NCBI GenBank assembly: GCA_964402425.1
Contig: CAYOCD010000001.1
Span: forward strand, 4,349 to 68,348
Length of the DNA stretch: 64,000 nucleotides
Direction of reading: 5' to 3'
Origin: an uncultured Gammaproteobacteria bacterium
Lineage (GTDB): Bacteria; Patescibacteriota; Patescibacteriia; UBA9934; GWF2-40-263
How positions within the stretch are numbered: the stretch's first letter is position 1; each line of letters begins with the position of its first letter. Shown here one piece after another: positions 1,820 through 47,060 of the stretch. Made by a program: the position numbers and the translations under genes. The notes under the pieces are model-generated. The model was not told the DNA's origin, did no database searches, and was given only the letters and a program-made list of their open reading frames with translations.

Positions 1820-1870
1820 CATTTCCGCCCTTTCATCCTTTTCAGACCTTTCCGCCCCTTCCCCTAAATC
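1820..1870. repeat. Dispersed pyrimidine-rich repeat, copy a (intergenic, straddles the stop codon of the 1864-2304 gene)
   Basis: ATTTCCGCCCTTTC...CCTTTCCGCCCCTTCCCCTAAATC matches the core shared by five other loci. Confidence 0.6.
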
Positions 1871-2304
1871 TCCGAAAGATCGTCTTCTGAAACAGTTCTG
1901 CCAAAGTAAGAGACCGCATCCCCCGTGTTTTCATTCGTAATGACACGAAGGGTTTCACCGTCTTTTGATTGATAGTCAGAAAATCCATTACGATCTTCTT
2001 CTTCCAAAAAGGCGTCGCCATCAACTTGCTTCACGACCCCAGCATCTTCATAACTAAATTCGTATTCTTTGTTTTGAAACAAGATCACTTCTGATGGCTC
2101 GATCTCTTCTGTGATTTGGTGAAAGAGAACAATTTCATCTTCCTTTGGCGCAACAGACAACATGTTGTCTTCATCGTCATACAACCAGAACATGGTTGTC
2201 CCATCATCAAGCGTAATTTCCGCTTGTCCAATTTTTGTGAATGGCTCGTTGGCAACACTCACGCTCTCACCTAATTCCATGGCCAAAAGATCGCTGATTT
2301 TCAT
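1864..2304 (-). CDS. Hypothetical acidic protein (146 aa)
   Basis: ORF-track ORF, strongly Asp/Glu-rich, with no recognisable motif. Its stop codon TAG sits inside a copy of the dispersed CCTTTCCGCC repeat. Confidence 0.45.
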   Translation of the reverse strand: MKISDLLAMELGESVSVANEPFTKIGQAEITLDDGTTMFWLYDDEDNMLSVAPKEDEIVLFHQITEEIEPSEVILFQNKEYEFSYEDAGVVKQVDGDAFLEEEDRNGFSDYQSKDGETLRVITNENTGDAVSYFGRTVSEDDLSEI

Positions 2305-2427
2305 ATTGATTTTACGTTGGAGCAGTTCCTCCTTATTTTTTTACTTCTTTGGCGATTATACTCGATAACGAAATTCTGTCTACACGCAGAAAACACCCAT
2401 TTTACGGGCACTTTCTGCGCCCAACTC

Positions 2428-2456
2428 TTGACAAAACCCCATTTTTATGATATATT
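2428..2456 (+). promoter_or_regulatory. Near-consensus sigma70 promoter driving the high-GC gene
   Basis: TTGACA at 2428-2433, a 17-nt spacer ending in TGA (extended -10 TG), then TATATT at 2451-2456. A 155-nt structured leader follows, then the RBS AGGAG at 2607-2611 and ATG at 2618. Confidence 0.6.
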
Positions 2457-2617
2457 GTGTTGTCGATGATGCAATGCGCCCACATCGTTGCTGACGAATC
2501 TTCGTCATAAGCGATGTGGTCGAATCCTAGTCTGGATGAAACCCGAACCGTGTGCAAAGCGCAAAAGCGATGCACTAACTTGGACGCGAAACCGCGTTCT
2601 TTCAACAGGAGTTCTAG

Positions 2618-3238
2618 ATGAGCCTCAGCACCAATCCGATCATGGAACGTCTTCTCTCGAACCTCTCGACGGTGGACCGCGACTCCACGAACAATGGCAT
2701 GCGAAAGCGCGTGCTCACGATCGTGGACGTCCAGGCTAGCATCTCGACGAAGGACGTCGAGTTCAAGGCAGATAAGACTCCCGACGGCACCGACTACCTC
2801 TACGCCAACATCAAGGGCGTGGACGTACACCTGCGCGACGGCCTCATGCCGATCGGCGACACGGTCACCGGCCGGATCGAAATCAAGATCCGCACCTGGG
2901 AAAAGGCGGATGGCACTGGCTACCGCAATTACCAGTTCTACCTCAACTGCTTCCCGGCGACCAAATCGCCGACCTGCCAGATCGTGTTCCACGACCCCGA
3001 AGAAACCCGATGGGCGCGGGACATCGACGGACACAACGGCGTCTTCGCCCACGTGTCCTCGGACCGCAAGCGGAACCATCACCTCGAGGTCTGCGGCTTC
3101 AACGTCGAGACCGACGCCGCGAACCGCCGCCCGCGCCGCCCCGTCTTGACCGGAACTCCGCGAGAGATGGAGGTCTATGAACGGTGCGGTACCGAAAATC
3201 TCCTCAACGAACTGGACAAGCGCTACAATCAGCTGTAA
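2618..3238 (+). CDS. Hypothetical protein (206 aa) encoded by a high-GC island, a probable horizontally acquired gene
   Basis: GC is about 60% with strong GC3 codon bias, against about 42-45% in the flanks. The RBS AGGAG sits 6 nt upstream of the ATG. The overlapping ORFs 2402-3340(-) and 2694-3149(+) are stop-poor artefacts of the high GC. No family was recognised; its fold is unknown. Confidence 0.65.
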   Translation: MSLSTNPIMERLLSNLSTVDRDSTNNGMRKRVLTIVDVQASISTKDVEFKADKTPDGTDYLYANIKGVDVHLRDGLMPIGDTVTGRIEIKIRTWEKADGTGYRNYQFYLNCFPATKSPTCQIVFHDPEETRWARDIDGHNGVFAHVSSDRKRNHHLEVCGFNVETDAANRRPRRPVLTGTPREMEVYERCGTENLLNELDKRYNQL

Positions 3239-3315
3239 GCCACCCACTTGCCCTGAGCAAGAAGAAAACCTCGAGCGTAGCTCGACGTCACTTTCTTCAC
3301 AGCTCGGGGTTTTCT

Positions 3316-3440
3316 TTTTGAAAAAAGGCCTGAGAGGCAAGAGAAGCTCGAGATGCTAGAGAGGTTTTCAGACATGATTCACAAAAATTTTTAATTCGGC
3401 TTCTCAAGCCTCTCTTGCCTCTCCAGCATCTCAAACCTTT
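3316..3440. repeat. Long imperfect inverted repeat downstream of the high-GC gene
   Basis: GGCCTGAGAGGCAAGAGAAGCTCGAGATGCTAGAGAGG and, about 40 nt later, GGCTTCTCAAGCCTCTCTTGCCTCTCCAGCATCTC share the complementary blocks CTCTTGCCTCTC and AGCATCTC. Confidence 0.45.
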
Positions 3441-3458
3441 CTGCTATACTACCCTCAT

Positions 3459-5006
3459 ATGCAATTAAAATCCGCATGGATTGGTTACGATTTTCCGTTC
3501 GACACCGTTGAAGCACATCCGCAAATTGTGGAGTGGAGAAAAAATGGATTAGAAAAGCGAGTCAAAATGCCGGAGCATCATATGACGCTCGGGTATTTTG
3601 ATTCTGTTGATTCTGAGAAGCTTGTCGAAGCACTCAAAAAACTTAGCGCTCCCCTTTCACAAACAACTGTTGTGTTTGATGGGTTTGGCGTAATCGATGG
3701 CTATACCTATCTCACTCCAACCCTTGTGGAAGGCGATTCTTCGCGCATGATCCGTAGAGAACTTCTTGCTTCAGAACTTCTCGCCCCAGAAAACGATAAG
3801 GACTTTCACGTATCGATTGGCGGAGCAGACCCGTTCACAAGCAGCAAACCAAAAGAAACAGATCTTGTTCCAACATTATCCATTGATGGACAACTTGTTC
3901 TTGTTGGCAAAAATGGAGAAAAATTTGTGAAACTTTTTTGGGATGATGCAAAGCAGAACTTCGTTGATCCAACCGCAAAACAAACACACACACCCATTCC
4001 AGTTGAAGCGATTGTCATCTTTCCAAAAATCCAAGCAGACACCTGTGTCGCGCTTTATCTTCTTGCCCGATTCGGTAAAGAAGCGTTTCCAGGCATTGAT
4101 GTTGCTCCGGTTCTCTTTTGGTCATCTCTTCCGGAAGGAAAAAATCCAGATCAACTTCTTTCGGAAGAACATGTACTAACAATTGACCTTGGTGGCGGAT
4201 TGTTTGATCACCACATCGCAAATGCAACTTCTGGAAGACGTGAAAATTGCGCGTCAACACTGATTGCAACATACCTTGAAATCGATCAAAATCCCGCACT
4301 CAAAAAAGTCCTTGCCTGGGCAAAACGCGATGATCTTGAAGGAAAAGGTACGATCAGCGACGATCCGCTTGATCGCGCGTTTGGTCTCTCTGGACTCATG
4401 ATGAATTTAAATCGTGCCTTTCCGAACGATCCAAAGCGCACGCTCGACTATATTCTTCCACTCATTCACTTCCATGTTTTGGAAGAACAAAAACGATCTG
4501 AAGAACTTCCACGTGAATGGGAACAACTCCTTGCAAACGGAAGTGCAAAACAATTTGATCTAAAACAAGGAAGTGCAGATTTAAAATGTGCCTATCTAGA
4601 AACGGATAATATTGCCCTTGCAGGTTTTCTCCGTGCTGCAAAGCGCATGGACTTGATTATCCAACGTCGCGCATCAAGTAACCACACAAACATCATTACA
4701 CGACAATTACGCAGTATTGATCTACGTCCAACAATTGAGGTGCTTCGTAAAGAAGAAGCAAAACGTAAAACACCACCCGTCCCCTTTGATCGCGTTGTGT
4801 TTCAAACAGCTGGTCGTGTTGAAGGAATTGATGAATGGTTTTATGACGATGCGGCAAACACCATTCAAAACGGTGGTGTAAACCCAGGCACAACTCAAGC
4901 AACACACATGAGTGGAGAGGAAATTCTTGATATTGTGAAACGTACGATCCCATTTGGAATCATTGGAGCATTGAAACGAAAGAAAAGTATTGAACTCGGA
5001 AAATAA
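3459..5006 (+). CDS. 2H-phosphoesterase (LigT / 2',3'-cyclic phosphodiesterase-like) N-terminal domain fused to a large uncharacterised C-terminal domain (515 aa)
   Basis: The two H-x-[TS]-x motifs of the 2H superfamily are present: HHMTLGY and FHVSIGG, spaced about 65 aa apart. The C-terminal roughly 370 aa contain a GGGLFDHH segment but no family I can assign. Confidence 0.55.
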   Translation: MQLKSAWIGYDFPFDTVEAHPQIVEWRKNGLEKRVKMPEHHMTLGYFDSVDSEKLVEALKKLSAPLSQTTVVFDGFGVIDGYTYLTPTLVEGDSSRMIRRELLASELLAPENDKDFHVSIGGADPFTSSKPKETDLVPTLSIDGQLVLVGKNGEKFVKLFWDDAKQNFVDPTAKQTHTPIPVEAIVIFPKIQADTCVALYLLARFGKEAFPGIDVAPVLFWSSLPEGKNPDQLLSEEHVLTIDLGGGLFDHHIANATSGRRENCASTLIATYLEIDQNPALKKVLAWAKRDDLEGKGTISDDPLDRAFGLSGLMMNLNRAFPNDPKRTLDYILPLIHFHVLEEQKRSEELPREWEQLLANGSAKQFDLKQGSADLKCAYLETDNIALAGFLRAAKRMDLIIQRRASSNHTNIITRQLRSIDLRPTIEVLRKEEAKRKTPPVPFDRVVFQTAGRVEGIDEWFYDDAANTIQNGGVNPGTTQATHMSGEEILDIVKRTIPFGIIGALKRKKSIELGK

Positions 5007-5041: not shown

Positions 5042-5568
5042 GTGAACAAATATATCTTCTGACTCCCCTCCGCCTCATCCACAACATCCGGTGTCCATCC
5101 AGGAATCGGCCATACATATGTAATGACGCGTGCACCAGGCTTTAATTCTTTCTCAAGCTTTGGACGAATCTTCTCATACGTCTCTGGCATAAGAAACATG
5201 TACACCACGTCCACGTTTGAAAGATCTGCATGAAACGCATTACCGAGTTTTATTTGGATATTTGTAAGACCCGCGAATGTTGATTGAAACCACGCGATCA
5301 CAACTTGCGCAATCGAAAGCTCAACACCAATCACATGTGCATCTTTCGATCTTGCCGCAACCGCACGACACACGCGCCCGTTTCCACATCCGAGTTCTAT
5401 AAATACCTCACCGGATTTGAGATTCGCAAGCTTTACGATCCGCTCGAAATCTTTTTTCCACGTTGGAACCCAAGGCGCACCCGCGTTTGCGGCGTAGGCG
5501 AATGAAATAAGAAGAATCAGAAAGAGGGCGTAGAGGATCCACATAATGACGTCATGGTAACATTTCAA
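5023..5568 (-). CDS. Membrane-anchored class I SAM-dependent methyltransferase (181 aa)
   Basis: N-terminal TM helix, then the SAM-binding motif FIELGCGNGRV and VIGVELS. It is a paralog of the 38274-38822 gene. Confidence 0.55.
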   Translation of the reverse strand: MKCYHDVIMWILYALFLILLISFAYAANAGAPWVPTWKKDFERIVKLANLKSGEVFIELGCGNGRVCRAVAARSKDAHVIGVELSIAQVVIAWFQSTFAGLTNIQIKLGNAFHADLSNVDVVYMFLMPETYEKIRPKLEKELKPGARVITYVWPIPGWTPDVVDEAEGSQKIYLFTKKPNA

Positions 5569-6372: not shown

Positions 6373-6405
6373 AAAACTCGGCAATGGCCGGGTTTTCTTT
6401 TTTGA
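6373..6405. terminator. Terminator hairpin shared by convergent genes
   Basis: AAAACTCGGC-AATG-GCCGGGTTTT followed by TTTTCTTTTTTG. Confidence 0.55.
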
Positions 6406-6411
6406 TATTTT

Positions 6412-8257: not shown

Positions 8258-8300
8258 CCAAAGAAAAAGACTCACGATAAACGTGAGTCTTTTTCTTTGG
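8258..8300 (-). terminator. Terminator hairpin immediately 3' of tRNA-Gln
   Basis: Perfect inverted repeat CCAAAGAAAAAGACTCACG-ATAAA-CGTGAGTCTTTTTCTTTGG. A U-run follows on the minus transcript. Confidence 0.6.
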
Positions 8301-8371
8301 TTCCCGGACAGGGATTCGAACCCCGATACTCAGGACCAGAACCTGATGTCCTGCCGTTAGACGATCCGGGA
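8298..8371 (-). tRNA. tRNA-Gln (anticodon CUG)
   Basis: Manual fold of the revcomp TCCCGGATCGTCTAACGGCAGGACATCAGGTTCTGGTCCTGAGTATCGGGGTTCGAATCCCTGTCCGGGAACCA. It has a 7-bp acceptor stem with a U1-A72 pair typical of bacterial tRNA-Gln, the anticodon loop UUCUGGU, the T-loop TTCGAAT and an encoded CCA. Confidence 0.8.
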
Positions 8372-8602: not shown

Positions 8603-10219
8603 CTACGCCACGCTCCCACCAAACGCATCCATGAGCGAGGACACAACCTCATCCTTTTCTTTTGCTTTACCGAGCACAGCGTGAATTCTGACAGCTCTTC
8701 CAAGCACGCGCTCTAAAATACTTTCAACAAGTTTGCGGTTTTTTTCTTTGTTCACGGTCTGTACGTATAAATCATATTCAAATGCGAGTTCAACCATATC
8801 CCCGCCAACACTGTTTACTTCACACGCTTGTAAAAACAACGGAAGTGATGCGTTGCATTCTTGAACTTGTGCAAAAACCTCCGGCCATTTACGACGTACT
8901 TCATCTACACTTATCACAGGAACACTGTCAAAAACCTGTTCCGTTGTTGTAAGCGGTTGTCTGTGCACCGGTTCAAGAACCAATTGATCTATCATTTCCA
9001 TCACAGGAACGGTTGTTTCTGTTTCTGTGATGGGTTCTAATGTGACACGTGGTACCTCAACCACAATCGCTTCAACAGAAGGAGGTATCACCGGAATCGT
9101 TTTAACAGATCCACGCACTGAATCAACCCCCGACAACTTGAAATCCCCCGTGCTTTTTACCCTTTCCGCCCTTTCCCCTCCCCCTAAACACAATTCCACA
9201 ATCGCAAGCTCAGCTGGAAGTTGTGGAATCTCATCTGTGCGCATGTGACGACGTGCCGTTAGAAACAAATCAATCGCACAGTTCAAAAATGACATGCGAT
9301 CAGAAGCTTTTGGATCTGCAACGGACGCAAGTAACTGATCACGCAAAGTAGAAATAACATCATCCAAAAAATGCATGAGATCAACACCTTGTTCAATATG
9401 TGCATTCAATTGACGAATCGCTATTGCGGCGTCCCTCTTTGCAAGGGCATCTATAAAATCATTTACAAGAACATCTGTTGTCATGGGCAGCACGAGAGAG
9501 GCAACATCCATACTGATATCCCCCTCATCCAGAGACAAAATTTGCCCGAGCATGCTTTCTGCATCTCGCTCTGACCCTCCGGAGTGTTTTGCAATTCCCA
9601 AAAGGACACTCTCATCAACGTTCCGCTTTTCTTGTTTTGTGATGGATGCGAGTCGTTCGACCATGGCATCTTTGGAAATCTTTTTAAAATCGAAACGCTG
9701 ACAACGACTGAGAATGGTTGCGGGAACTTTATGAATTTCTGTTGTGGCGAGAATGAAGAGGGCGTGTGCCGGCGGCTCCTCTAATGTCTTCAGAAGCGCG
9801 TTAAATGCGCTTGTTGAGAGCATGTGTACCTCATCGATAATGTACACTTTTTTCTTGAGAACACTGGGGGCAAATCTAACATTGCGAATGATGTTCTCGC
9901 GCACATTATCAACGTCCGTATTTGATGCCGCGTCAATTTCAAACACATCCATCGCTTTGCCACTTGTAATTGCAAGACAAGCTTCACATGCATTACATGG
10001 TTCAGCATTATTTCTGTTATCGCAATTCACGGCCTTTGCAAGTAAGCGTGCAACGGTTGTTTTTCCGATTCCGCGTGGGCCCGTAAAAACATACGCATGC
10101 GAAACAGAACCAGACATAATCTGGTTCTGAAGTGTTTGTGTCACATGCGTTTGACCTGTGACATCGGAAAAAACAGAGGGACGATACGTACGATAGAGAG
10201 CCAACATAGGAGATTCCAA
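8603..10219 (-). CDS. dnaX: DNA polymerase III subunit gamma/tau
   Basis: Walker A GPRGIGKTTVARLLAKAVNC, a zinc-binding CDNRNNAEPCNACEAC segment, the DEVHML Walker B and the SRC motif (TILSRCQRF). Confidence 0.9.
   Translation of the reverse strand: MESPMLALYRTYRPSVFSDVTGQTHVTQTLQNQIMSGSVSHAYVFTGPRGIGKTTVARLLAKAVNCDNRNNAEPCNACEACLAITSGKAMDVFEIDAASNTDVDNVRENIIRNVRFAPSVLKKKVYIIDEVHMLSTSAFNALLKTLEEPPAHALFILATTEIHKVPATILSRCQRFDFKKISKDAMVERLASITKQEKRNVDESVLLGIAKHSGGSERDAESMLGQILSLDEGDISMDVASLVLPMTTDVLVNDFIDALAKRDAAIAIRQLNAHIEQGVDLMHFLDDVISTLRDQLLASVADPKASDRMSFLNCAIDLFLTARRHMRTDEIPQLPAELAIVELCLGGGERAERVKSTGDFKLSGVDSVRGSVKTIPVIPPSVEAIVVEVPRVTLEPITETETTVPVMEMIDQLVLEPVHRQPLTTTEQVFDSVPVISVDEVRRKWPEVFAQVQECNASLPLFLQACEVNSVGGDMVELAFEYDLYVQTVNKEKNRKLVESILERVLGRAVRIHAVLGKAKEKDEVVSSLMDAFGGSVA
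9160..9190. repeat. Dispersed pyrimidine-rich repeat, copy b, in frame inside dnaX
   Basis: CCCTTTCCGCCCTTTCCCCTCCCCCTAAAC. On the coding strand it encodes the LGGGERAERVKS linker. Confidence 0.6.
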
Positions 10220-21517: not shown

Positions 21518-24181
21518 CTACCCTTTCTTCAACACCCGTTTCAAATACTCCCCCGTATGACTTCCTGCGTGTCTTGCAACCTCCTCCGGCGTTCCGGCAT
21601 ACACAACCGTTCCGCCTTTGTCTCCCCCTTCTGGCCCCATATCAATAATCCAGTCGGCTGTTTTGATAACGTCTAGGTTGTGTTCAATCACAATGACAGA
21701 GTTTCCTTTGTCGACGAGCGAGTGCATCACTTCAAGAAGTTTCTTCACATCTGCGAAGTGCAAGCCTGTTGTTGGTTCGTCGAACAAATAGAATGTTCGC
21801 CCCGTCTGCCTCTTCGACAGCTCCGTTGCAAGCTTCACACGCTGCGCTTCTCCTCCCGAGAGCGTTGGTGCAGGTTGACCGAGTTTTATATACGAAAGTC
21901 CAACATCATTAAGTGATGCCAGCTTGTCATAAATATAAGGAATCTCTTTGAAGAACACCGTTGCTTCTTCAATCGTCATTTCAAGAATGTCGTGAATGTT
22001 TTTTTCTTTGAAGGTAATCTCGAGCGTCTCGCGATCAAATCGTTTCCCTTTGCAGATATCGCACGTAACATACACGGTCGGAAGAAAATGCATTTCGATT
22101 GAAATCAGTCCGTGCCCCTCGCAATGCTCACAACGTCCGCCAGGGCGATTGAAACTGAAACGGCCTGCTTTGTACCCACGGAATTTTGCTTCCGTCGTTT
22201 CCGCAAAGAGATCGCGAATGGGTGACCACGCACCTGTGTACGTTGCTGGATTTGAACGCGACGTACGACCAATCGCATCTTGATCAATCAGAATCGCTTT
22301 ATCAATGTATTCAAGTCCAAGAAGCGCTTTATGCTTTCCGGGTGTTTGCGATCCACCATACAGACGTTTCGAAATAGCCTTGTACATGGTGTCATATGCG
22401 AGCGTTGACTTCCCTGATCCGGACACACCTGTCACACACACAAATTTACGAAGAGGAAAATCAACATCAATATTTTTCAAATTGTTTTGTGTTGCCCCTT
22501 TCACACGAATCGATCCACCATCATTCTGACGACGTTCTTTTGGAACTTCGATCTTTTGGTCACCACGAAGATACGCTGCAGTAAGCGACTTCTTGTCTTC
22601 AAAAATCGCTGGCGTCTCGCCAGCGGCGACAACATATCCCCCGTGCACACCAGCTCCCGGGCCAATCTCGATCATGTAGTCGGACGCCATGATCGTATCT
22701 TCGTCATGTTCAACAACAATCACCGTGTTCCCAAGATCACGCAGATCTTCAAGTGTTTTAATCAAACGATCATTATCACGTTGATGAAGTCCGATCGTTG
22801 GTTCATCAAGAACATACATCGCACCCACAAGTCGAGATCCAACTTGCGATGCAAGGCGAATACGTTGCGCTTCTCCGCCCGAGAGCGTGCCAGCTCGACG
22901 ATTGAGCGACAAATAATGCAACCCAACATCAAGCATAAACTTCAAACGATTTTCAATTTCACGCAAAACAGATCCTGCAATCTCTAAATCTTTTTCTGTG
23001 ACGTCCAATGTTTTAAAATACAAAACCGCTTCATCGATGGACATATTTGTAATGTCCACAATCGAAATTCCTTTTTTCTCTGCCATGGGAATAAGCTCAT
23101 CTGATTCCTGATATTCAATCGGTGCGATCGGTGTTTTCTTTTTCGTCACCTTCAATTCCTTTCCGCCCCTTCCGTCCTCTCCGCCCTTCACCACCCCTGG
23201 CAACCACACATGCAACGCTTCCGATCGCAAACGCGCACCGTGACATGTTTCACACAAATCTTCCGAGAATAACTCGACGGTTCCGAGTCCGGTACATGCC
23301 TGACATGCGCCGTACGGAGAGTTAAACGAAAAGAGGCGTGGTTCGATTTCTGGAAAGGAAAACCCATCTTTCGGACAAGAAAATTTTGCCGAAAGCATTT
23401 GCTCGGTTTTGTCTGGATACACAATGGTCGCGACATCATTCCCCTTCTCGACGGCCGTCTCGAGAGCTTCCGCGAGACGCTGACGTGTTTCTTTCGGCGC
23501 GCTCGCGAGCTCGGCAATCGTAATCATATCGACGACCACTTCGATCGTGTGCTGCTGATAGCGCGCAAGTTCAATCTTTTCATCCAAACGATATTCTTTG
23601 CCATCAATGCGCACACGTGCGAATCCAGAGTTATACAAATCGTAAAGCAATTGGTAATACTCGCCTTTTCTCCCAAGAACCACCGGCGCGAGAATTTTAA
23701 TACTTCCCTTTCCGGCCTCTCCAGCCTCTCTCGCCTCTATTGCCTCTCGAGCCTTCCCCAACACAACATCCACCATCTCTTCATTCGTCAACTTCTGAAT
23801 TTGCTCACCGCACTTTGGACAATGCGGCTTTCCCACACGCGCATACAACACACGAAGATAATCATAAATCTCCGTGATGGTGGCAACGGTTGAACGAGGG
23901 TTGGAGGAATGCGCTTTCTGGTCGATCGAAATCGCTGGCGACAAACCTTCAATATCGTCTACGTCTGGCTTTTCCATCTGACCAAGAAACTGACGCGCGT
24001 AAGCCGACAGCGACTCCACATATCGACGCTGCCCTTCAGCGAAAATCGTGTCGAATGCCAAAGAAGATTTTCCCGAACCTGAAACACCCGTGATACACAC
24101 AAGTTTATTCCGCGGCATCTCCACATTAATATTTTTCAAATTGTGCTCGCGCGCTCCCCGCACGATAATTTTGTCTTGCAT
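21518..24181 (-). CDS. uvrA: Excinuclease ABC subunit A
   Basis: Two ABC ATPase modules ([13 protein letters not shown] and [13 protein letters not shown]), LSGGE signatures and Zn-finger CxxC pairs. Confidence 0.95.
23158..23200. repeat. Dispersed pyrimidine-rich repeat, copy c, in frame inside uvrA
   Basis: CCTTTCCGCCCCTTCCGTCCTCTCCGCCCTTCACCACCCCTGG. It encodes [16 protein letters not shown]. Confidence 0.6.
23706..23760. repeat. Dispersed pyrimidine-rich repeat, copy d (degenerate), in frame inside uvrA
   Basis: CCCTTTCCGGCCTCTCCAGCCTCTCTCGCCTCTATTGCCTCTCGAGCCTTCCCC. It encodes [17 protein letters not shown]. Confidence 0.5.
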
Positions 24182-24591: not shown

Positions 24592-26709
24592 TTATGCTTT
24601 TACTTTCTTTACCTTCTTCGGCACCGTACTCTTTTTCTCAAGTTCCTTCTTTAACATCGCCACTTCATCCCTCAACAGCGCCGCCGTTTCGAAATCGAGC
24701 TTGCGTGCAGCTTCTCGCATCTCAACTTCTTTTTCTTTTATCACTTCCTGAATCTCATGCGAGTCTGCCTTCAGTTCGAGTTTGAGAATATCCTTAATCG
24801 ATCGCTCTTCACTCTCGCCAAACATGGCGCGGATGTCGTGAATTTCTTTGATGATGCTTTCCGGTGTGATGTTGTGTTTTGTGTTGTACGCAATCTGAAT
24901 CGTTCGACGACGTTCGGTTTCCTCGATCGCGCGTGTCAGCGATCCGGTCATTTGATCGGCGTAAAGAAGAACTTCTCCCTTTACGTGACGCGCCGCACGT
25001 CCAATCGTTTGAATGATGGATGTATCTGATCGCAAGAATCCTTCTTTGTCTGCGTCGAGAATGGCGACGAGTGTCACCTCAGGAAGGTCGAGACCTTCAC
25101 GCAGCAAGTTCACTCCGACGAGAACGTCATATTTTCCTCTTCGAAGATCCGAGAGGATTGTGATGCGATCGAGTGTATCCACGCCTGAGTGCAAATATTG
25201 CACGGCGATCTTTTTTTCTTTTAAGAATTCGGAAAGATCCTCTGCCATTTTTTTTGTAAGTGTTGTCACAAGCGTACGCTCATGAAGCGCAACGCGTTTT
25301 TCAATCTCGCCGATGAGATCTTCGACTTGACCTAGATAACCTTCTGGGGCTTCGACAAGCTCAGCCAATACATAGTCATCTTGCGATTCGCCTCTGTCGC
25401 GTTTGTCGCTTCTGTCACCTTTGACGCCTCCCGCAGTCACTCGTCTCACTGTAATCACCGGATCAACCAATCCTGTTGGACGAATAATTTGTTCCACGAT
25501 TTTTTGTGCATGTTTTTTCTCATACGGACCCGGCGTTGCGCTCACAAAAACCGTTTGACCGATCTTTTTTTCGAACTCATCGAATTGAAGCGGTCGATTG
25601 TCTCGCGCGCTTGGCAGGCGGAAGCCGTGATCAATCAATGAGTTCTTGCGCGCTTGATCCCCCGCATACATTCCACCGATTTGTGGAATGGTTACGTGCG
25701 ATTCATCAACGAGCGTCAAGAAATCCTCCGGGAAATAATCCATGAGTGTGTACGGAGGTTCACCTGGCGCACGGCCATCAAAGAAGCGTGAGTAGTTTTC
25801 AATTCCATTGCAGTAACCGACTTGTTCGATCATTTCAATATCGTATCGCGTTCTTCGAGAAAGACGCTCCGCCTCAAGAACCTGTCCGTTCTCTTCGAAC
25901 TTCTTGAGCTGCTCCGCAAGTTCATGACGAATTTGTCCGATCGCGCGTTCTTTGCGTTCTTGCGAGACAACATAATGCTTTGCCGGAAAAATCCAAAGGT
26001 CTAATCGTGTATCAAGTATTTTTCTTGTGATCGGATCCAACTGCTGAATCGAATCAATGGCATCGTCCGACAGAACGAGACGATAAATCATTTCTTCGTT
26101 TGTTGGCATGATTTCAAGAATGTCCCCCTTCGCGCGGAAGTGTCCGCGTGTGAGATCTGTGTTTGTGCGCTCGAACTGCATGGAGATCAGTTGTCGGATC
26201 AAATCTGTTCGAGAAGCAGATGGGCCAACCTTCAAATGTAAAACAGTCTCTTCATATTCTTTAGGCGAACCCAAACCATAAATACACGAAACGGACGCGA
26301 CGATAATCACATCACGACGTGTGAGCAGCGCTTGTGTTGCCGCGTGACGCAAACGATCGATCTCTTCGTTGATCATCGCTTCTTTTTCAATATACGTATC
26401 TGTACGCGCCATGTACGCCTCTGGTTGGTAATAGTCATAATACGAAACAAAATACTCCACGATGTTGTCCGGGAAAAACTCGCGGAACTCATTACAGAGC
26501 TGCGCGGCGAGCGTTTTGTTGTGCGCAATCACAAGCGTTGGACGCTGCGTCTGCTGAATAACGTTCGCCATGGTGAATGTCTTTCCAGAACCCGTTACAC
26601 CAAGAAGTGTTTGAAACTTTTTTTTATCATGAAGACCCCCAACGAGTTGTTCGATGGCTTTTGGCTGATCTCCGGCAGGCTTATACTTCGATTTAAGTTC
26701 AAATTTCAT
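24592..26709 (-). CDS. uvrB: Excinuclease ABC subunit B
   Basis: Helicase motifs GVTGSGKTFT and DESH, a beta-hairpin region and a C-terminal UVR domain (LRDEVAMLKKEL). Confidence 0.95.
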   Translation of the reverse strand: MKFELKSKYKPAGDQPKAIEQLVGGLHDKKKFQTLLGVTGSGKTFTMANVIQQTQRPTLVIAHNKTLAAQLCNEFREFFPDNIVEYFVSYYDYYQPEAYMARTDTYIEKEAMINEEIDRLRHAATQALLTRRDVIIVASVSCIYGLGSPKEYEETVLHLKVGPSASRTDLIRQLISMQFERTNTDLTRGHFRAKGDILEIMPTNEEMIYRLVLSDDAIDSIQQLDPITRKILDTRLDLWIFPAKHYVVSQERKERAIGQIRHELAEQLKKFEENGQVLEAERLSRRTRYDIEMIEQVGYCNGIENYSRFFDGRAPGEPPYTLMDYFPEDFLTLVDESHVTIPQIGGMYAGDQARKNSLIDHGFRLPSARDNRPLQFDEFEKKIGQTVFVSATPGPYEKKHAQKIVEQIIRPTGLVDPVITVRRVTAGGVKGDRSDKRDRGESQDDYVLAELVEAPEGYLGQVEDLIGEIEKRVALHERTLVTTLTKKMAEDLSEFLKEKKIAVQYLHSGVDTLDRITILSDLRRGKYDVLVGVNLLREGLDLPEVTLVAILDADKEGFLRSDTSIIQTIGRAARHVKGEVLLYADQMTGSLTRAIEETERRRTIQIAYNTKHNITPESIIKEIHDIRAMFGESEERSIKDILKLELKADSHEIQEVIKEKEVEMREAARKLDFETAALLRDEVAMLKKELEKKSTVPKKVKKVKA

Positions 26710-32507: not shown

Positions 32508-35500
32508 TCAGGAGCATCCAGATGTTGCTCCACAGTTCAAACACTTGTAACACGCCGCATTGCGCACCATCATAGATCCACAGGAATCACATGCGGGAGC
32601 ATCTGACTGATTATCAAATGTTGCTGTCAATGATCTGTTTGTTGCAATTTTTGCTTCAAAAAGTTTTGGTTGTGCCTCCAAAACCTCCGCTGCCTTTGTC
32701 GCTTCTGCCGCTTCTGTCGCTTTTGTCGCTTCTTCCATCACATTCGTTGCTTCAGACAAGCTTTCTTCTCCCACCTGAATACCAAGCGCGATTTGCGATT
32801 CACGTGGCAAGAACTTAAGCGCAAGCCAGCGGAACATATAATCCGTGATGGATTTTGCAATACGAATTTGAGGATTGGATGTGTATCCGGATGGTTCAAA
32901 TCGCATGTGAACAAATTTGTTCACAAGAACCTCAAGCGGCACTCCATATTGGAGACCGATCGAAATAGATGTTGCGAATGAATCCATGAGTCCACTAATA
33001 ACACTTCCCTCTTTTGACATGGTGATAAACACTTCGCCCGGCGTTCCATCATCATACAATCCAACCGTAATAAATCCCTGATGATTGCCGATCTGGAACT
33101 TGTGCGTAATCGCACGACGTTCATCCGGCATGCGTCGACGACGCATTTTGCGATCATCCGCAGAGATGGTCACAGTAGGAACGGAAGCGGAAACCGCAGG
33201 CACGACAAGTGGGGTTTCTTTTTTTGTTTCCAATCCCTTTCCGCCCTCTCCGCCATTTCCGCCGTTTTCATTTTGTTTCTTTGCATCTGACTCTTTGGAT
33301 GTTGTAAGCGCTTGTTGACGCTTTGACCCATCACGATAAATCGCAATCGCTTTCAGTCCAAGCTTCCAACCAGTCATGTACACTTCCGCAATATCTTCAA
33401 CCGTTGCCTCATGTGGCATGTTGACCGTTTTTGAAATTGCTCCGGAAATGAACGGTTGAACCGCTGCCATCATGCGAATGTGGCCCAAGTAATGAATGGT
33501 GCGTGTTCCCTTTGCTGCTTTAAATGCACAATCAAAGACAGATAAGTGTGCGTCTTTAAGATGTGGTGCACCTTCAATCGTGTCATGTTCTTCAATGAAC
33601 GCGAGAATATCTTTACGTTCTGCTTCCGAATATCCAAGACGCATGAGAGCTTCTGGAACGGTGTTATTTACGATCTTCAACATTCCCCCACCGACCAACC
33701 ATTTGTATTTTACGAGAGCGATGTCTGGCTCAACCCCTGTTGTGTCACAGTCCATGAGAAACGAAATTGTTCCGGTTGGAGCGAGTACAGAAATTTGTGC
33801 GTTGCGAAGTCCGAATTGACTTCCGTGATCCACAACATGATCCCATGCTTTTCGTGATTCTGATAAAAGATCTGTTGGAACCCCATGACCATCGAGCTTG
33901 TAAGACGCATCGCGGTGCATGCGCATGACTTCCATACAAGGTTCTGCATTGCGAGCATACCCCGCAAACGCTCCGATCTTTTCAGCGATCTTTGACGATT
34001 GATAATAACAGTGACCGCTTTGAAGGGATGTAATAGCTCCCGCAAGGTTTCTTCCTTCTTCAGAATCATAGGCAAGTCCGCGACTCATAAGGAGCGCTCC
34101 CAAGTTTGCATACCCAATTCCGAGTGGGCGGTAATCAAAACTGTTTTGTTCAATCGCGGGGGTTGGGTAAGAAGAATTTCCAACAACGATTTCCATGGCG
34201 GTGATAATGATCTCGTTTGCTTTTTTAAACGCCGCAACATCGAAAACCATTTCTCCATTCACCTCTTTACGAAAACGCATGAGATTCAATGATGCAAGAT
34301 TACACGCACTGTCATCCAAGAACATGTATTCTGAACAAGGATTGGATGCGTAAATGCGATCCGTATTCTTGCTCGTGTGCCATGTGTTAATGGTTGTGTC
34401 GTACTGCATTCCAGGATCTCCACATTGCCATGCCGCGTCTGCAATCTTATGCATCAAATCTTTTGCACGGAATGTCAGTGATGGTTTTCCACTTACGACT
34501 TCATGTGTCACCCATTCACCATCTGCCTCAACCGCTTTCATGAAATCATCTGTTACACGAACAGAATTGTTTGCATTTTGAAAAAAGACTGATGCATAGG
34601 CTTCCCCGTCCATAGAACCATCATATCCCGCATCCATGAGCGTCCAAGCTTTTTTCTCTTCATTTACTTTACACGTGATGAATTCTTCAATATCTGGATG
34701 TCCAATATCAAGCACAACCATTTTTGCAGCACGACGTGTTTTTCCACCACTCTTAATAACCCCCGCAAATGCGTCCAATCCTTTCATAAAGGAGATTGGA
34801 CCAGAGGCTTTTCCGTTACTTCCACCCAAATATTCCTGCTTTGAACGAAGCTTGGACATGTTCATGCCGGCACCGGATCCATTTTTGAACAACATTCCTT
34901 CTGTGACACACAAATTCAAAATAGAACGCATGTCATCTTGCACAGAGTTGATAAAACATGCGGAACACTGTTGTGGGCGTGGTGTTCCAACATTGAACCA
35001 CACAGGTGAGTTGAATGCTGCCATTTGGTTTACCAAGATGTAATGCAATTCATCTTCAAAGTGCTGTGCGTCTTCTTTGGTTTGAAAATAGCCATCTTTA
35101 CGTCCCCAATTGGAAATTGTTTTTGCAACACGTCCAATGAGTTGTTTGACCGAAAATTCACGATCATCTTTTCCGAGCGTTCCGTAAAAATATTTTGAGA
35201 CAACGATGTTTGTTGCGGTTTGCGTATAAAATTCTGGAACCTCAACCCCTTTTTGCTCAAACACAATCGCTCCTTTTGCGTTTGTGATAACTGCGTCTCG
35301 CTTCTCCCAACGAATTTCATCATACGGATGAATGCCTTCTTTTGAAAAATAACGACCAACCTCAATCCCGTGTCCGTATTTTTCTGTGAGCGTTGACGCA
35401 ACCGCTTTGGTACGAAATTCAGAATATCGTTTTGCAATATGCGGAAGATTGTTGTCGATACATGTTACAACAACAACTTCACGAATATCTGATGCAGACG

Positions 35501-35759
35501 GAATAGAATGACCATCAAATTGTTTGGTCAAACGTGACATCACTTGAGAAGTCACCTTATTAATCAGCTGTGGATTTTGCATGCCGGACGCCTCAAACAC
35601 CGCCCGAATAGAGGATGTTAATTTTTGCACCTGAAACTCTTCTTCTTTTCCATCGCGTTTTAAAACGGATTTAACAGATGTCATAAATTCCCAAACAGCA
35701 TCTGAAATAGCAGATGTGTTTACGGGTGAAACCGAGGTCTTGGAAAGGGATTCAGACAT
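32508..35759 (-). CDS. nrdJ: Class II (adenosylcobalamin-dependent) ribonucleoside-triphosphate/diphosphate reductase with an N-terminal ATP cone and a C-terminal Cys-rich tail
   Basis: ATP cone (VLKRDGKEEEFQVQKL...), class II RNR core motifs (SNPCSEY, the CGDPG region) and the C-terminal CDSCGS...CYKCLNCG zinc ribbon. The start is moved to the Met of MSESLSK at 35759, because the ORF-track start at 35876 adds an implausible hydrophobic leader. Confidence 0.9.
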   Translation of the reverse strand: MSESLSKTSVSPVNTSAISDAVWEFMTSVKSVLKRDGKEEEFQVQKLTSSIRAVFEASGMQNPQLINKVTSQVMSRLTKQFDGHSIPSASDIREVVVVTCIDNNLPHIAKRYSEFRTKAVASTLTEKYGHGIEVGRYFSKEGIHPYDEIRWEKRDAVITNAKGAIVFEQKGVEVPEFYTQTATNIVVSKYFYGTLGKDDREFSVKQLIGRVAKTISNWGRKDGYFQTKEDAQHFEDELHYILVNQMAAFNSPVWFNVGTPRPQQCSACFINSVQDDMRSILNLCVTEGMLFKNGSGAGMNMSKLRSKQEYLGGSNGKASGPISFMKGLDAFAGVIKSGGKTRRAAKMVVLDIGHPDIEEFITCKVNEEKKAWTLMDAGYDGSMDGEAYASVFFQNANNSVRVTDDFMKAVEADGEWVTHEVVSGKPSLTFRAKDLMHKIADAAWQCGDPGMQYDTTINTWHTSKNTDRIYASNPCSEYMFLDDSACNLASLNLMRFRKEVNGEMVFDVAAFKKANEIIITAMEIVVGNSSYPTPAIEQNSFDYRPLGIGYANLGALLMSRGLAYDSEEGRNLAGAITSLQSGHCYYQSSKIAEKIGAFAGYARNAEPCMEVMRMHRDASYKLDGHGVPTDLLSESRKAWDHVVDHGSQFGLRNAQISVLAPTGTISFLMDCDTTGVEPDIALVKYKWLVGGGMLKIVNNTVPEALMRLGYSEAERKDILAFIEEHDTIEGAPHLKDAHLSVFDCAFKAAKGTRTIHYLGHIRMMAAVQPFISGAISKTVNMPHEATVEDIAEVYMTGWKLGLKAIAIYRDGSKRQQALTTSKESDAKKQNENGGNGGEGGKGLETKKETPLVVPAVSASVPTVTISADDRKMRRRRMPDERRAITHKFQIGNHQGFITVGLYDDGTPGEVFITMSKEGSVISGLMDSFATSISIGLQYGVPLEVLVNKFVHMRFEPSGYTSNPQIRIAKSITDYMFRWLALKFLPRESQIALGIQVGEESLSEATNVMEEATKATEAAEATKAAEVLEAQPKLFEAKIATNRSLTATFDNQSDAPACDSCGSMMVRNAACYKCLNCGATSGCS
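32696..32745. repeat. Tandem 9-nt coding repeat near the nrdJ C-terminus
   Basis: GTCGCTTCT/GCCGCTTCT/GTCGCTTTT/GTCGCTTCT encodes the EATKATEAAEATKAAE low-complexity linker. Confidence 0.55.
33235..33270. repeat. Dispersed pyrimidine-rich repeat, copy e, in frame inside nrdJ
   Basis: CCCTTTCCGCCCTCTCCGCCATTTCCGCCGTTTTC encodes ENGGNGGEGGKG. Confidence 0.6.
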
Positions 35760-35944
35760 AGGGCGAGTATGCTCGAAAAAAATTCGAAAGGTGAAATGAA
35801 TAAAAGGACAAAGGAAGAAAGGGGAAGAATGATATTTTGAAAAAATTTTCCAATAAAAAACGATCCGAAGACACATGTCTCATGGATCATCTTGTTTTGA
35901 CCATACGTTCGTGATTCGAGTCATTCTCCATCCCCACGACCGCA

Positions 35945-44239: not shown

Positions 44240-44240
44240 A

Positions 44241-45528: not shown

Positions 45529-45612
45529 ATATCTGACAGAATAACATAGAGACCCGCTCTGGACAAAAAATCAGGCATTCGCTATACTCCTCACGAATCT
45601 TAACCTTATTCT

Positions 45613-45861: not shown

Positions 45862-45865
45862 ATTT

Positions 45866-45891
45866 AAACCCCTGACATTTGTCAGGGGTTT
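45866..45891 (+). terminator. rpmB terminator
   Basis: AAACCCCTGAC-ATTT-GTCAGGGGTTT followed by a T run. Confidence 0.65.
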
Positions 45892-45910
45892 TTAAATTCA
45901 AAACGGATAC

Positions 45911-45975
45911 ATCACGTCGCTCGCGAGCGACGTGATAAAAAAACCACCAGTTATCTGGTGGTAAAAAAATTTTTT
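45911..45975 (-). terminator. Two further hairpins; the distal one terminates the convergent minus-strand gene
   Basis: Perfect 13-bp palindrome ATCACGTCGCTCG/CGAGCGACGTGAT (45911-45936), then ACCACCAG-TTAT-CTGGTGGT (45943-45962) flanked by A7/T8 runs. Confidence 0.55.
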
Positions 45976-45990
45976 TTCTTTGAAGAAAGT

Positions 45991-46887
45991 CTATCTTCCT
46001 GGCAATTCAACGGAGGAGTATGGCAATTGGCTTGGTGAGCTTCCGTCGTCCCATTTAACCGTAACGGTTGAATCATCAAAAGCGGTTACCTTACCACTGT
46101 AGTAGCTCCCATTGTTCCATTTTGCAAGAACACTCTGACCAATAGAAATTGAGCTGTTTGGTTGGTTTAAGTGTGCAACGTTTATAGGTGGCAAGACTTC
46201 GTCGCTTCCATCATCGTAATGCACATAGACCTCATCGCCAGAAACCTTGGTTATTTTACCTGGATACCAACGCGATCCACCTTTCCAACGGCCCAAAATA
46301 TTTTCTCCAACTTTAAAAGTCGCTGTTGCTGCCGAATCTTTCTCTGTATCAGCTGGTAATGATTCATCAGTCTCTACCGATGTTGCCACAGCTCCGCCAA
46401 GTGCCGCAACGACTTTGTCTGCAAATGCCTCGTCACCAGCTTTCCAGTTTGACACGACAGCGTGCGTTGCGTCACCTGGGAGCCAGGCAATACGTGCGGA
46501 CGATGAAAGTTTTTGGAGTGTTTCGTATTGCTCTTTAATCTCTGCAACAACAGTTGCAAGATCTGACGGGGATTTAACCGCAACAACAAGCAAACGTACA
46601 CTTCCGTCACCTTCCGTAAATCTGAACTTAGTCGCTGCTGAAATTTTAGCAGCTGTTTTCATTTTTTCAGCATCCTTTTCAGGTTCTTCATCGTATTTTT
46701 CAATGTTTGCCGCCGCAAGACTGCCGTGAACGAATGCCAAATAGGCATCAGAGCCTGCCGGGACTTGTGCAGCAGGTTGCGACGATTGGGGTGGAGTCTG
46801 CGCCGTATTAGATACTGGCGCTTTTGAACAACCCGCACCGACGAACAACATCGACCCGATCAGCAAGAAGAAAATTTTATTTTTCAT
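45991..46887 (-). CDS. Lipoprotein with two tandem SH3-like/Tudor-like small beta-barrel repeats
   Basis: Lipobox LFVGAGCS. Repeated modules GENILGRWKGGSRWYPGKITKVSGDEVYVHYDDGSDEVL and GQSVLAKWNNGSYYSGKVTAFDDSTVTVKWDDGSSPSQL. Confidence 0.45.
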   Translation of the reverse strand: MKNKIFFLLIGSMLFVGAGCSKAPVSNTAQTPPQSSQPAAQVPAGSDAYLAFVHGSLAAANIEKYDEEPEKDAEKMKTAAKISAATKFRFTEGDGSVRLLVVAVKSPSDLATVVAEIKEQYETLQKLSSSARIAWLPGDATHAVVSNWKAGDEAFADKVVAALGGAVATSVETDESLPADTEKDSAATATFKVGENILGRWKGGSRWYPGKITKVSGDEVYVHYDDGSDEVLPPINVAHLNQPNSSISIGQSVLAKWNNGSYYSGKVTAFDDSTVTVKWDDGSSPSQLPYSSVELPGR

Positions 46888-46966
46888 AAAATAATTAGGA
46901 ATGATACCTCATTCTATAAAACCCGATCAAATAAAACAAGCCTATTCTTGCTTCCATGTGTGCATA

Positions 46967-46999
46967 AAAAAATCTCGACACTTCGTCAAGATTTTTTAT
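46967..46999 (-). terminator. Terminator for the 602-aa gene
   Basis: AAAAAATCTCGAC-ACTTCG-GTCAAGATTTTTT, with one G-U wobble on the minus transcript, followed by a U run. Confidence 0.5.
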
Positions 47000-47015
47000 T
47001 CTCTTCCCTTCAAAA

Positions 47016-47060
47016 CCTTTCCGCCTTCTCCGCCCTTCCCCTACCTCAACACCCCTCCCC
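47016..47060. repeat. Dispersed pyrimidine-rich repeat, copy f (straddles the stop of the 47041-48849 gene)
   Basis: CCTTTCCGCCTTCTCCGCCCTTCCCCTACCTCAACACCCCTCCCC. The TAG stop occupies the same CCCCTA position as in copy a. Confidence 0.6.

Follow-up and report, generated by a model that had tools for sequence, protein, structure and literature searches.

Dispersed arrays of 9-base repeats in linkers of essential proteins and behind stop codons of a Candidatus Uhrbacteria-like bacterium

Introduction

What is a short stretch of DNA that recurs in frame within unrelated essential genes of one bacterium, and again exactly at the stop codons of other genes? A preliminary description of a 64,000-nucleotide stretch of a contig (the window) listed six copies of such an element, and proposed either a short selfish insert resembling the Rickettsia palindromic elements or a hotspot of recombination and slippage. 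The host is a Candidatus Uhrbacteria-like (Patescibacteria) bacterium, with the small genome of the candidate phyla radiation (CPR), and through this genome 9-base purine-rich tandem-repeat units (e.g. GGCGGAAAG) are dispersed. The arrays occur in two settings: immediately 3' of stop codons, and within essential genes, where they keep the frame and encode part of a flexible linker. In this study I find that these repeats are a real family at the level of DNA, a variant of minisatellites and of in-frame selfish repeats already known, and not new machinery.

Results

All six copies are present as they had been described, and NCBIfam confirms the essential genes that hold four of them, those for DnaX (8603..10219, - strand), UvrA (21518..24181, - strand) and NrdJ (32508..35876, - strand). 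These coding arrays, together with two of a second 9-nt family, are the following.

9160..9187, - strand: array b, DnaX linker after domain III (LGGGERAERVK), in the frame GCG GAA AGG
23158..23200, - strand: array c, UvrA variable site 2, where the canonical UvrA insertion domain is missing
23707..23760, - strand: array d, UvrA variable site 1, six units of the GAGAGGCNN variant with a terminal GCCGGAAAGG
33235..33270, - strand: array e, NrdJ linker directly after the catalytic core (NGGNGGEGGKG)
25388..25430, - strand: second 9-nt family, unit GCGACAGAR, UvrB variable site (GVKGDRSDKRDRGE)
32697..32733, - strand: second 9-nt family, GAAGCGACA units, NrdJ C-terminal linker (EATKATEAAEATKAAE)

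The sense unit reads GGCGGARAG or GGTCKGAAA, with a GGGGAAGG-type 5' end and GGCGGAAAGG at the 3' end of the array; a third unit variant, GAGAGGCNN, makes up copy d, which has diverged from the other copies. Arrays are about 25-55 nt long, in whole 9-nt units. TRF reports period 9 for a', c, d and e and 8-9 for f (a' and f are listed below), hence short units placed head to tail, and period 9 in 15 of the 31 arrays of the window and in 43 of 106 across 187 kb of window and relatives. None of the unit's six frames has a stop codon, and the three sense frames give Gly/Lys/Glu/Arg/Ala tripeptides. No internal inverted repeat was seen in single copies (six listed copies inspected). On one strand the copies are purine-only except for the C in GCG, so that the earlier wording "pyrimidine-only" has to be corrected to pyrimidine-rich, each unit having a G in CCG.

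The 10-mer CCTTTCCGCC matches exactly at positions 1847, 9161, 23158, 33236 and 47016, always on the + strand, and tops the over-representation of 10-mers in the window (5 observed vs 0.098 expected under an order-3 Markov model). Allowing up to one mismatch gives 13 matches vs 2.9 expected from shuffles, a number that none of 100 shuffles reached, and the 11-mer CCTTTCCGCCC occurs 4 times in the window vs 0.021 expected.

Could the copies be alike because their hosts were selected, convergently and at the protein level, for flexible Gly/Glu/Lys/Arg linkers, the likeness in DNA being a by-product of composition and codon usage? The linkers that hold the coding copies are hypervariable and of low complexity in all homologs examined, which confirms the earlier view that the copies sit in tolerant protein regions and agrees with such convergence, as do the GGxGGxGGKGG motifs (e.g. 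in Obg) that arise at the protein level in many phyla. Array d is a 12-residue insertion relative to Geobacillus UvrA, and array e adds about 11 residues compared with representatives that are 45-53% identical. However, with peptides and codon usage given, synonymous-codon resampling predicts 0.048 copies of the 10-mer in coding sequence vs 3 observed (0 of 1000 resamplings). Among the codons in the arrays are the rarest ones for Arg (AGG, 3% of all Arg) and for Gly (GGC, 10% of all Gly), which argues for similarity in DNA rather than in protein. The reading frame differs between copies, b being read as G GCG GAA AGG (AER) and c, d and e as GGC/GCC GGA AAG (GGK/AGK), and the same DNA is found in the non-coding arrays a, a' and f. 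Arrays c and f have GAAGGGCGGAGA...GGCGGAAAGGNNTTGAAGG in common and are near-identical across about 30 nt, one unit being their main difference, and c alone is translated. At least eight loci within 64 kb have this unit family in common, some of them non-coding and the others read in one of two frames. Resampling, frames, non-coding copies and rare codons all agree with the earlier claim that the relatedness of the copies is at the DNA level, and convergence of the proteins, already largely refuted, is highly improbable.

Outside the coding linkers the family and its surroundings consist of the following features.

1820..1866, - strand: array a, non-coding, five 9-nt units, in sense TAGGGGAAG GGGCGGAAA GGTCTGAAA AGGATGAAA GGGCGGAAA
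1727..1760, + strand: array a', inverted partner of a, purine-rich on the + strand and pyrimidine-rich in the - strand transcript
1766..1795, - strand: intrinsic-terminator-like stem-loop of 13 bp, then a U-run, between a and a'
3327..3364, + strand: array g1, units GAGAGGCAA, GAGAAGCTC, GAGATGCTA and GAGAGG, downstream of the + strand gene 2618..3238
3400..3437, - strand: array g2, inverted partner of g1, same unit type
47002..47046, - strand: array f, 45 nt (5 x 9) inserted in frame ahead of the last codon of ORF47041..48849

All copies had been placed on the same strand, which holds for the six originally listed but not for the family overall, given the inverted partner at 1727-1760 and the inverted pair 3327-3364/3400-3437. 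Such partners are found at these two intergenic loci only. The TAG at a shared CCCCTA position is real, as the TAG stop of ORF1864..2304 is exactly where a begins, and that of ORF47041..48849 exactly where f begins. In a the stop forms the first three bases of the array; in f it is the second codon and the stop now in use, the ancestral TAA remaining in frame at 46997-46999, 14 codons downstream of the TAG.

Array a' pairs with a across 17 consecutive bp, and the region 1722-1870 folds as a 17-bp outer stem that encloses the 13-bp terminator (z = -6.35 vs shuffles). The pair g1 and g2 folds into a long hairpin (region 3318-3446, z = -3.6 vs shuffles) just upstream of a promoter-like TATACT box and the gene 3459..5006. 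Array a' lies upstream of a PBP/FtsI-like gene that is cut off by the left end of the window. That a and a' are the 3' neighbours of two convergent genes was considered and rejected, as the PBP/FtsI-like gene is on the minus strand in L141 and the ORF 1214..1726 (+ strand) is spurious. Two assemblies made independently for the same strain (L140 and L141; one strain sampled) agree fully through a, a', g1 and g2, so that the arrays are neither assembly artefacts nor hypermutable on short time scales. No within-strain polymorphism was seen between these two assemblies in the four arrays, and 15.3 kb more sequence of the strain from the same assemblies holds no additional copy.

At locus f the array is present in the window and in relative L006 (84% identity) and absent from L005 (92%) and L007 (79%), where CTT CGA TAA is kept and the terminator follows. 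Host codons that flank arrays are synonymously recoded toward the array (CTT CGA TAA to TTG AGG TAG at this locus, and CGN CTT to AGG TTG), the outcome expected from a conversion tract filtered by protein selection. Comparing filled with empty site shows no target-site duplication at f; the similarity of GGTGTTGAGG and GGTTTTGAAGG is not one, because it is the terminal unit of the array itself, which also occurs at a', in L006 and in L132.

The non-coding copies could be functional nucleic-acid elements, such as part of an extended terminator hairpin, a C-rich Rho-loading site in read-through or antisense transcripts, or a periodic protein-binding site, with the coding copies as tolerated by-products. 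Three non-coding copies stand immediately 3' of stop codons and upstream of terminator-like hairpins, the inverted pairs fold far better than shuffles, a purine array followed, along the direction of transcription, by a pyrimidine array is seen again in L002 and L132, and the coding copies keep their rare codons. Yet L005 and L007 do with the plain terminator at locus f, sequence and unit length differ in sister genomes (9 nt in the window, 10 nt in L139), and the arrays match no Rfam family, the sole match in the window being a tRNA-Gln at 8298-8371. An anti-Shine-Dalgarno role, by pairing of GAAAGG with the 16S 3' end, is unlikely in a genome with almost no Shine-Dalgarno usage, and was dropped: most genes are without such a site and look leaderless, and the window has no rRNA. 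The canonical G-quadruplex motif, four runs of at least three G with short loops, was seen on inspection in copy b only. I consider a function of this kind improbable.

The coding sites also change between relatives. DnaX carries 2-5 units among the window, L008, L009 and L010, and UvrC an array of 45 nt (5 units) in L001 and L002 vs 21 nt (2 degenerate units) in the window and L004. The repeats in UvrA sites 1 and 2, and those at one site in UvrB, differ between proteins that are 93-95% identical; the UvrB variable site (25388..25430) is empty in L004 and filled by other repeats in L001, L002 and L139. The earlier reading of the copies as inserts is borne out in that at least some were gained or lost between close relatives, but it does not extend to copy b in DnaX, which is not a recent insertion; its orthologues in relatives (81-88% protein identity) are arrays of 2-5 units.

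Close relatives fill the same permissive sites with other, genome-specific repeats. In L001 the GAAGCGACA unit is found again, in UvrA site 1 and at the end of a contig, and L139 has a different family, with 10-nt units, in UvrA sites 1 and 2, in UvrB and in a spacer, its two UvrA sites being identical at 47 of 51 positions in DNA. In a set of 42 UvrA proteins, the two sites of one and the same protein have 0.36 peptide 4-mers in common vs 0.021 between genomes (0 of 5000 permutations). Within one genome, different sites are more alike than orthologous sites of different genomes. The contigs of L001 and L006 terminate inside arrays, as expected for dispersed repeats.

A miniature mobile element, comparable to the Rickettsia palindromic elements or the small dispersed repeats of cyanobacteria, moved by a trans-acting enzyme encoded elsewhere and later blurred in length by slippage, would explain the conserved 5' (TAGGGGAAGG) and 3' (GGCGGAAAGG) ends, the clean pair of filled and empty site at locus f with insertion at the same site in two lineages, the unrelated repeat types at the same permissive sites of sister genomes, and two independent events (f in the window, UvrC in L001/L002) of exactly 45 nt each. 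It is nevertheless unlikely, as there are no terminal inverted repeats and, at the filled site f, no target-site duplication, the lengths range from about 26 to 54 nt in whole units, the copy in DnaX is an old one whose number of units varies, and insertion alone leaves the recoded flanking codons unexplained. Scanning 30 window proteins, with Pfam among others, gave no match to a transposase, a recombinase or a reverse transcriptase.

Discussion

The arrays probably represent, though I hold this with considerable reservation, a dispersed minisatellite family that slippage, together with template switching or ectopic gene conversion, spreads and homogenises, the tolerance of the proteins acting as the filter. 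Replication slippage would expand and contract the arrays, while distant loci of one genome may copy and homogenise them through microhomology-driven template switching or ectopic gene conversion, for which no dedicated transposase would be needed. Selection would then retain harmless copies only, in frame in disordered linkers, at the 3' ends of genes, where the array's own TAG can act as stop, or between genes, often as an array and its inverted array that may form a hairpin around or near a terminator. In such a scheme the arrays would be neutral or selfish passengers. Of the two options proposed earlier, the recombination and slippage hotspot is nearer to the data than the palindromic insert.

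Some observations do not fit easily. Slippage alone does not predict exactly 45 nt twice, and the pattern at locus f requires either that one site was filled twice independently or that a precise reversion took place. The conserved ends, TAGGGGAAGG...GGCGGAAAGG, might point to a defined element or to a function, and so might the regular order of purine array, hairpin and pyrimidine array behind genes. A donor-recipient pair or conversion tract was not seen directly.

Alternatively, the arrays may be footprints of templated repeat synthesis by a genome-encoded activity, whose products are captured at DNA breaks; by analogy, candidates would be a telomerase-like or defence-type reverse transcriptase with its RNA (DRT10-like), or a slippage-prone polymerase. 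This would account for the genome-specific sequence and length of the units (9 nt here, 10 nt in L139), for the same repeat at unrelated loci of one genome, for insertions in whole units (5 units or 45 nt in each of the two independent events) and for the absence of a transposase. I regard it as very unlikely; the data analysed contain no enzyme of this kind, and neither the tandem-repeat cDNA of DRT10 nor the TIGR arrays, considered as relatives, fit beyond analogy.

Slippage is the accepted mechanism of bacterial minisatellites (VNTR), whose classical loci are independent of each other. The arrays resemble them in their head-to-tail units, in-frame periods that are multiples of three, and unit numbers that differ between relatives at orthologous loci (DnaX and UvrC). 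They differ in belonging to one family at many loci, evolving in concert within a genome and being replaced by other families in sister genomes. The small dispersed repeats (SDR) and STRR heptamer arrays of cyanobacteria (Elhai et al. 2008, Genome Res 18:1484) reportedly have units of about 7 or 21-27 nt. Compared by their description (PMC2884548), these are likewise very short, tandem and dispersed, possibly mobile with no identified enzyme, located within and between genes and organised in genome-specific families, but in another phylum and with other unit lengths and sequences.

Rickettsia palindromic elements (Ogata et al. 2000, as summarised in PMC10969869) are grouped with MITEs; each is a palindrome of about 100-150 bp that codes for a conserved peptide. 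Like these, the present arrays are short repeats dispersed in a small genome, many of them in frame in unrelated conserved housekeeping genes (DnaX, UvrA twice and NrdJ; UvrC in relatives) at positions compatible with function, with further copies in non-coding DNA. The likeness drawn earlier is a functional one only, since 25-55-nt arrays of 9-nt units, variable in number, non-palindromic as single copies and found in Patescibacteria, have neither that length nor a palindrome, terminal inverted repeats or target-site duplication. REP/BIME and REPIN sequences (PMC3116915, PMC3733652) are strictly extragenic palindromes of 20-40 bp mobilised by RAYT transposases. The intergenic pairs a/a' and g1/g2 are similar in forming inverted pairs or hairpins by gene ends and terminators; here, however, the arms are tandem arrays, half of the copies (four) are coding, and the 30 window proteins gave no transposase-like Pfam match. 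PARCELs are also coding repeats with symmetry at the DNA level, shuffled within genomes and tolerated in proteins, but as 25-residue amphipathic domains in long tracts of accessory membrane or surface proteins, in contrast to 3-residue units in linkers of core enzymes.

If this picture holds genome-wide, CPR core enzymes (DnaX, UvrA, UvrB, UvrC and NrdJ) carry a small set of permissive sites that genome-specific short repeats rewrite repeatedly, evolving in concert inside each genome. Marker-protein alignments and phylogenies would be affected, assemblies would break at the repeats, and spurious ORFs and misplaced stop codons can arise nearby. After Rickettsia, the arrays would be a second and independent case of in-frame repeats that colonise the essential genes of bacteria with small genomes and are tolerated there, and a natural map of insertion-tolerant loops; they could also serve as strain-typing markers. 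The system suits the question of how dispersed simple repeats homogenise with no known enzyme.

The literature searched contains no described 9-nt repeat family in Patescibacteria. An apparent antisense in-frame copy in L002 (8568-8592) falls in a conserved transmembrane helix and is probably a chance match. Scanning genome contigs with GGCGGARANGGCGGARAGG gave, among the matches listed, unrelated and mostly high-GC taxa and no Uhrbacteria; many of the listed matches are genuine (GGCGGARAG)n arrays or Obg-type Gly-rich coding sequence. This says little on relatedness, because the search was conditioned on that very unit. A metagenome scan with AAGGN{0,1}CTGAAAGGTCGGAAAGG gave 8 loci with a GC content of 0.40-0.60, some with inverted partners; these show that the same unit occurs elsewhere, not that the loci share a common descent.

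Tandem arrays in the window

The six repeat stretches on which the preliminary description was built are all present in the window sequence, at the positions and in the form claimed. The repeat elements are tandem arrays with a 9-nt unit, and TRF assigns a period of 9 to 15 of the 31 window arrays, a', c, d and e among them.

Arrays and associated features in the window
1727-1760: array a', inverted partner of a
1766-1795: terminator-like hairpin of 13 bp, between a and a'
1820-1866: array a
3327-3364 and 3400-3437: inverted pair g1/g2, GAGAGGCNN variant
9160-9187: array b, in DnaX
23158-23200: array c, in UvrA site 2
23707-23760: array d, in UvrA site 1
25388-25430: array of a second 9-nt family, unit GCGACAGAR, in UvrB
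32697-32733: array of the second family, unit GCGACAGAR, in the NrdJ C-terminal linker
33235-33270: array e, in NrdJ
47002-47046: array f, at the stop of ORF47041..48849

On the sense (-) strand, an array begins with (T)AGGGGAAGG, continues with units such as GGCGGAGAG, GGTCTGAAA or GAGAGGCNN, and ends in GGCGGAAAGG. Copies c and f have GAAGGGCGGAGA ... GGCGGAAAGGNNTTGAAGG in common and differ mainly by one unit, and only c is translated. The unit contains no stop in any of the six frames and its sense frames encode G/K/E/R/A tripeptides, and is for that reason unusually harmless as an in-frame insert. Five exact copies of the 10-mer CCTTTCCGCC lie in the window, all on the + strand, and it is the most over-represented 10-mer in a strand-specific k-mer survey under an order-3 Markov model (5 vs. 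0.098 expected); in the same survey the 11-mer CCTTTCCGCCC is found four times, against 0.021 expected. Allowing at most one mismatch gives 13 matches to CCTTTCCGCC where 2.9 are expected, a number reached in 0 of 100 dinucleotide shuffles. Independent assemblies of the window's strain carry the arrays with the same sequence.

The similarity had been proposed to reside in the DNA and not in convergent protein composition, and this is borne out. The host genes are indeed DnaX (8603..10219), UvrA (21518..24181) and NrdJ (32508..35876) according to NCBIfam, all three on the - strand, and the codon display confirms that the frame differs between copies, b reading GCG GAA AGG and c, d and e reading GGC/GCC GGA AAG. 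When codons were redrawn from window usage in 1000 rounds with the amino acids held fixed, the three occurrences of CCTTTCCGCC in coding sequence fell to an average of 0.048, and none of the 1000 rounds reached three. The arrays moreover employ rare codons: AGG encodes 3% of Arg residues and GGC 10% of Gly residues. Added to the use of a second frame and the existence of non-coding copies, these figures exclude convergent linker composition as the chief cause.

As had been noted for the intergenic copies, a and f start exactly on the TAG stops of ORF1864..2304 and ORF47041..48849, respectively. Contigs of the same strain from other samples (L141, 99.95% identity; L140, 99.99%) correct the gene map around a. 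A PBP/FtsI-like gene on the - strand, within the region 1-1822, continues past the left window end and is for that reason absent from the ORF list; its start is likely 1681 or 1621. On this corrected map a, the hairpin and a' all sit between two co-directional genes, so that transcription passes the stop codon first, then the purine array, the hairpin and, last, the pyrimidine array. Folding of 1722-1870 gives -43.6 kcal/mol (z = -6.35), a' and a pairing in a 17-bp stem that encloses the hairpin, and the inverted pair at 3318-3446 folds with z = -3.6. Two listed reading frames were rejected: 1214..1726(+) is spurious and antisense to the PBP/FtsI-like gene, as the same-strain contigs indicate, and at 2402..3340(-) the real gene is 2618..3238 on the + strand.

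Protein sites and turnover between relatives

Compared with Geobacillus UvrA (2r6f), the window protein has 12 additional residues at site 1, and site 2 coincides with the missing canonical insertion domain of about 110 residues (2r6f residues 330-442), which a short hypervariable linker replaces in the window protein. In DnaX, copy b comes after domain III, and the linker that holds it is hypervariable in 17 of 17 aligned relatives. In NrdJ, copy e directly follows the catalytic core and inserts about 11 residues that representatives at 45-53% identity lack. The NrdJ array of the second family lies in another variable linker, ahead of the C-terminal Cys motif. Within the DnaX linker a motif (N/D)FKxxGVDSxR is kept across Uhrbacteria (window ~9100-9160, - strand; alignment columns 425-445). 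In the representative library, many homologs of NrdJ are far longer, up to 2151 residues, and match in several stretches, a pattern consistent with inteins; no intein is found in the window NrdJ, whose N-terminal extension matches the ATP-cone-like N-terminus of anaerobic RNR models.

Among close relatives the UvrA sites differ in content. L002 (94% identity) retains the orthologous d, and its site 2 holds a GGAAAGGTY array; in L001 (95%), site 1 is occupied by the GCGACAGAG family and site 2 by a small hairpin; in L004 (93%), both sites hold unrelated sequence. The UvrB site of the window array is empty in L004 and holds other repeat-derived peptides in L001, L002 and L139. In DnaX the array recurs, frame unchanged, in relatives at 81-88% identity and has 2-5 units there, so copy b is old and shows VNTR-like variation. 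The contigs of L001 and L006 terminate within arrays.

At locus f, L005 (92%) and L007 (79%) have no array and end in GTG CTT CGA TAA followed by a terminator, whereas the window and L006 (84%) read AGG TAG followed by an array. The insertion in the window is exactly 45 nt (5 units) ahead of the last codon; the TAG stop is its second codon, and the ancestral TAA persists 14 codons further on in the same frame. The host codons have changed synonymously, from CTT CGA TAA to TTG AGG TAG. In UvrC, a 45-nt array (RLERLERSERSEREG) is present in L001 and L002, and 21 nt (RLARLGT), consisting of two degenerate 9-nt units, in the window and L004; the flank shows the same synonymous swap, CGN CTT to AGG TTG. 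Gains of exactly five units are seen in two independent cases, at window 47002-47046 and in UvrC (L001 9830-9884; L002 11140-11194).

Other repeat-derived peptides (CHPERSEGSLPVSRDSSVVGLPQNDI, VILSAAKDLSLESRDSSVVKLPQNDM and PSPQPSPSKGEGA) occupy the same permissive sites in sister genomes (P0009 UvrA site 2; L001 UvrB, ~2-2149; L002 3585-6293, site 3; L001 2284-4959, site 2). PSPQPSPSKGEGA derives from an CCCTCTCCC/GGGAGAGGG hairpin, and a further hairpin, GGGGCTGG/CCAGCCC, is likewise among the contents of these sites. These loops are therefore colonised by several unrelated repeat types. What looks like a coding copy in antisense orientation in L002 is actually a conserved transmembrane helix.

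In 42 UvrA homologs in which the two inserts are present, site 1 and site 2 within one protein have on average 0.36 peptide 4-mers in common, compared with 0.021 between genomes, and 0 of 5000 permutations reached the observed total. L139 (GCA_964355525.1) has a distinct purine-rich family with the 10-nt unit ACCAAAGGAA in UvrA sites 1 and 2, in a UvrB site and in a spacer (arrays at 5437-5470, 6395-6426, 9167-9209 and 9724-9762), and its two UvrA sites are identical at 47 of 51 DNA positions. Each genome therefore fills the same permissive sites with a repeat family of its own. The spacer copy in L139 lies directly upstream of an Avd-like (PF05635/bAvd) gene.

Interpretation and occurrence elsewhere

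The best-supported reading is that the window arrays form a dispersed minisatellite family. The feature is real, and the earlier observation is extended here. The earlier view of a selfish in-frame insert is partly right, but a better description is that of a 9-nt minisatellite family which is dispersed and evolves in concert. Array length would shift through slippage, arrays could be copied or homogenised among loci via template switching or ectopic gene conversion (no conversion event was seen directly), and the outcomes would then be filtered by protein tolerance. Flanking codons are recoded synonymously, as would be expected of a conversion tract that has survived selection on the protein. 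Alternatively, the arrays may be a defined mobile element, or elements with a nucleic-acid function; there is room for either in view of the conserved ends of the arrays, the occurrence of two events that each measure exactly 45 nt, the site used more than once at locus f and the regular layout around terminators. Pfam scans assign ordinary housekeeping functions to 30 window proteins, with no transposase, recombinase or reverse transcriptase among them, and tRNA-Gln is the sole match in an Rfam scan of the window.

Literature searches did not find the 9-nt family of the minisatellite reading described. The nearest concepts are RPEs, PARCELs and small dispersed repeats or minisatellites, and the likeness to DRT10 tandem-repeat synthesis is one of analogy only. 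A further 15.3 kb of the window's strain contains no additional copy. In a genome contig scan conditioned on the unit, the matches listed came from unrelated taxa and include true (GGCGGARAG)n arrays in other phyla, and a metagenome scan gave the GGTCTGAAAGGTCGGAAAGG array type at eight loci of varied GC, for which no evidence of common descent was seen. Long (GGCGGARAG)n or (GGTCGGAAA)n arrays, in matches selected by the unit itself, are found in Gemmatimonadota, Rhodospirillales, Marinobacter and other taxa (L035, L052, L063, L108, L060, L067, L034, L132 and L133); some of them have an inverted partner or lie at the end of a contig.

Genomic setting

As judged from the homologs of UvrA, DnaX and ORF47041, the window organism is a Candidatus Uhrbacteria-like member of the Patescibacteria. 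Almost every gene is on the - strand; the GC content is 0.42-0.46, with a GC skew of about -0.13. Most genes are without a Shine-Dalgarno sequence and leaderless in appearance, a TATAAT-like box lies 6-10 nt 5' of the ATG throughout the window (examples are at 3436-3461 and ahead of 15386), and two genes are preceded by the recurring motif CTTTCTGCTATAC, which together suggests that leaderless mRNAs are widespread. Directly upstream of dnaX, an 882-residue protein (10892-13540, - strand) contains a TrwB/T4SS coupling-protein DNA-binding domain, and a protein with this domain adjoins dnaX in the relatives L009 and L010 too.
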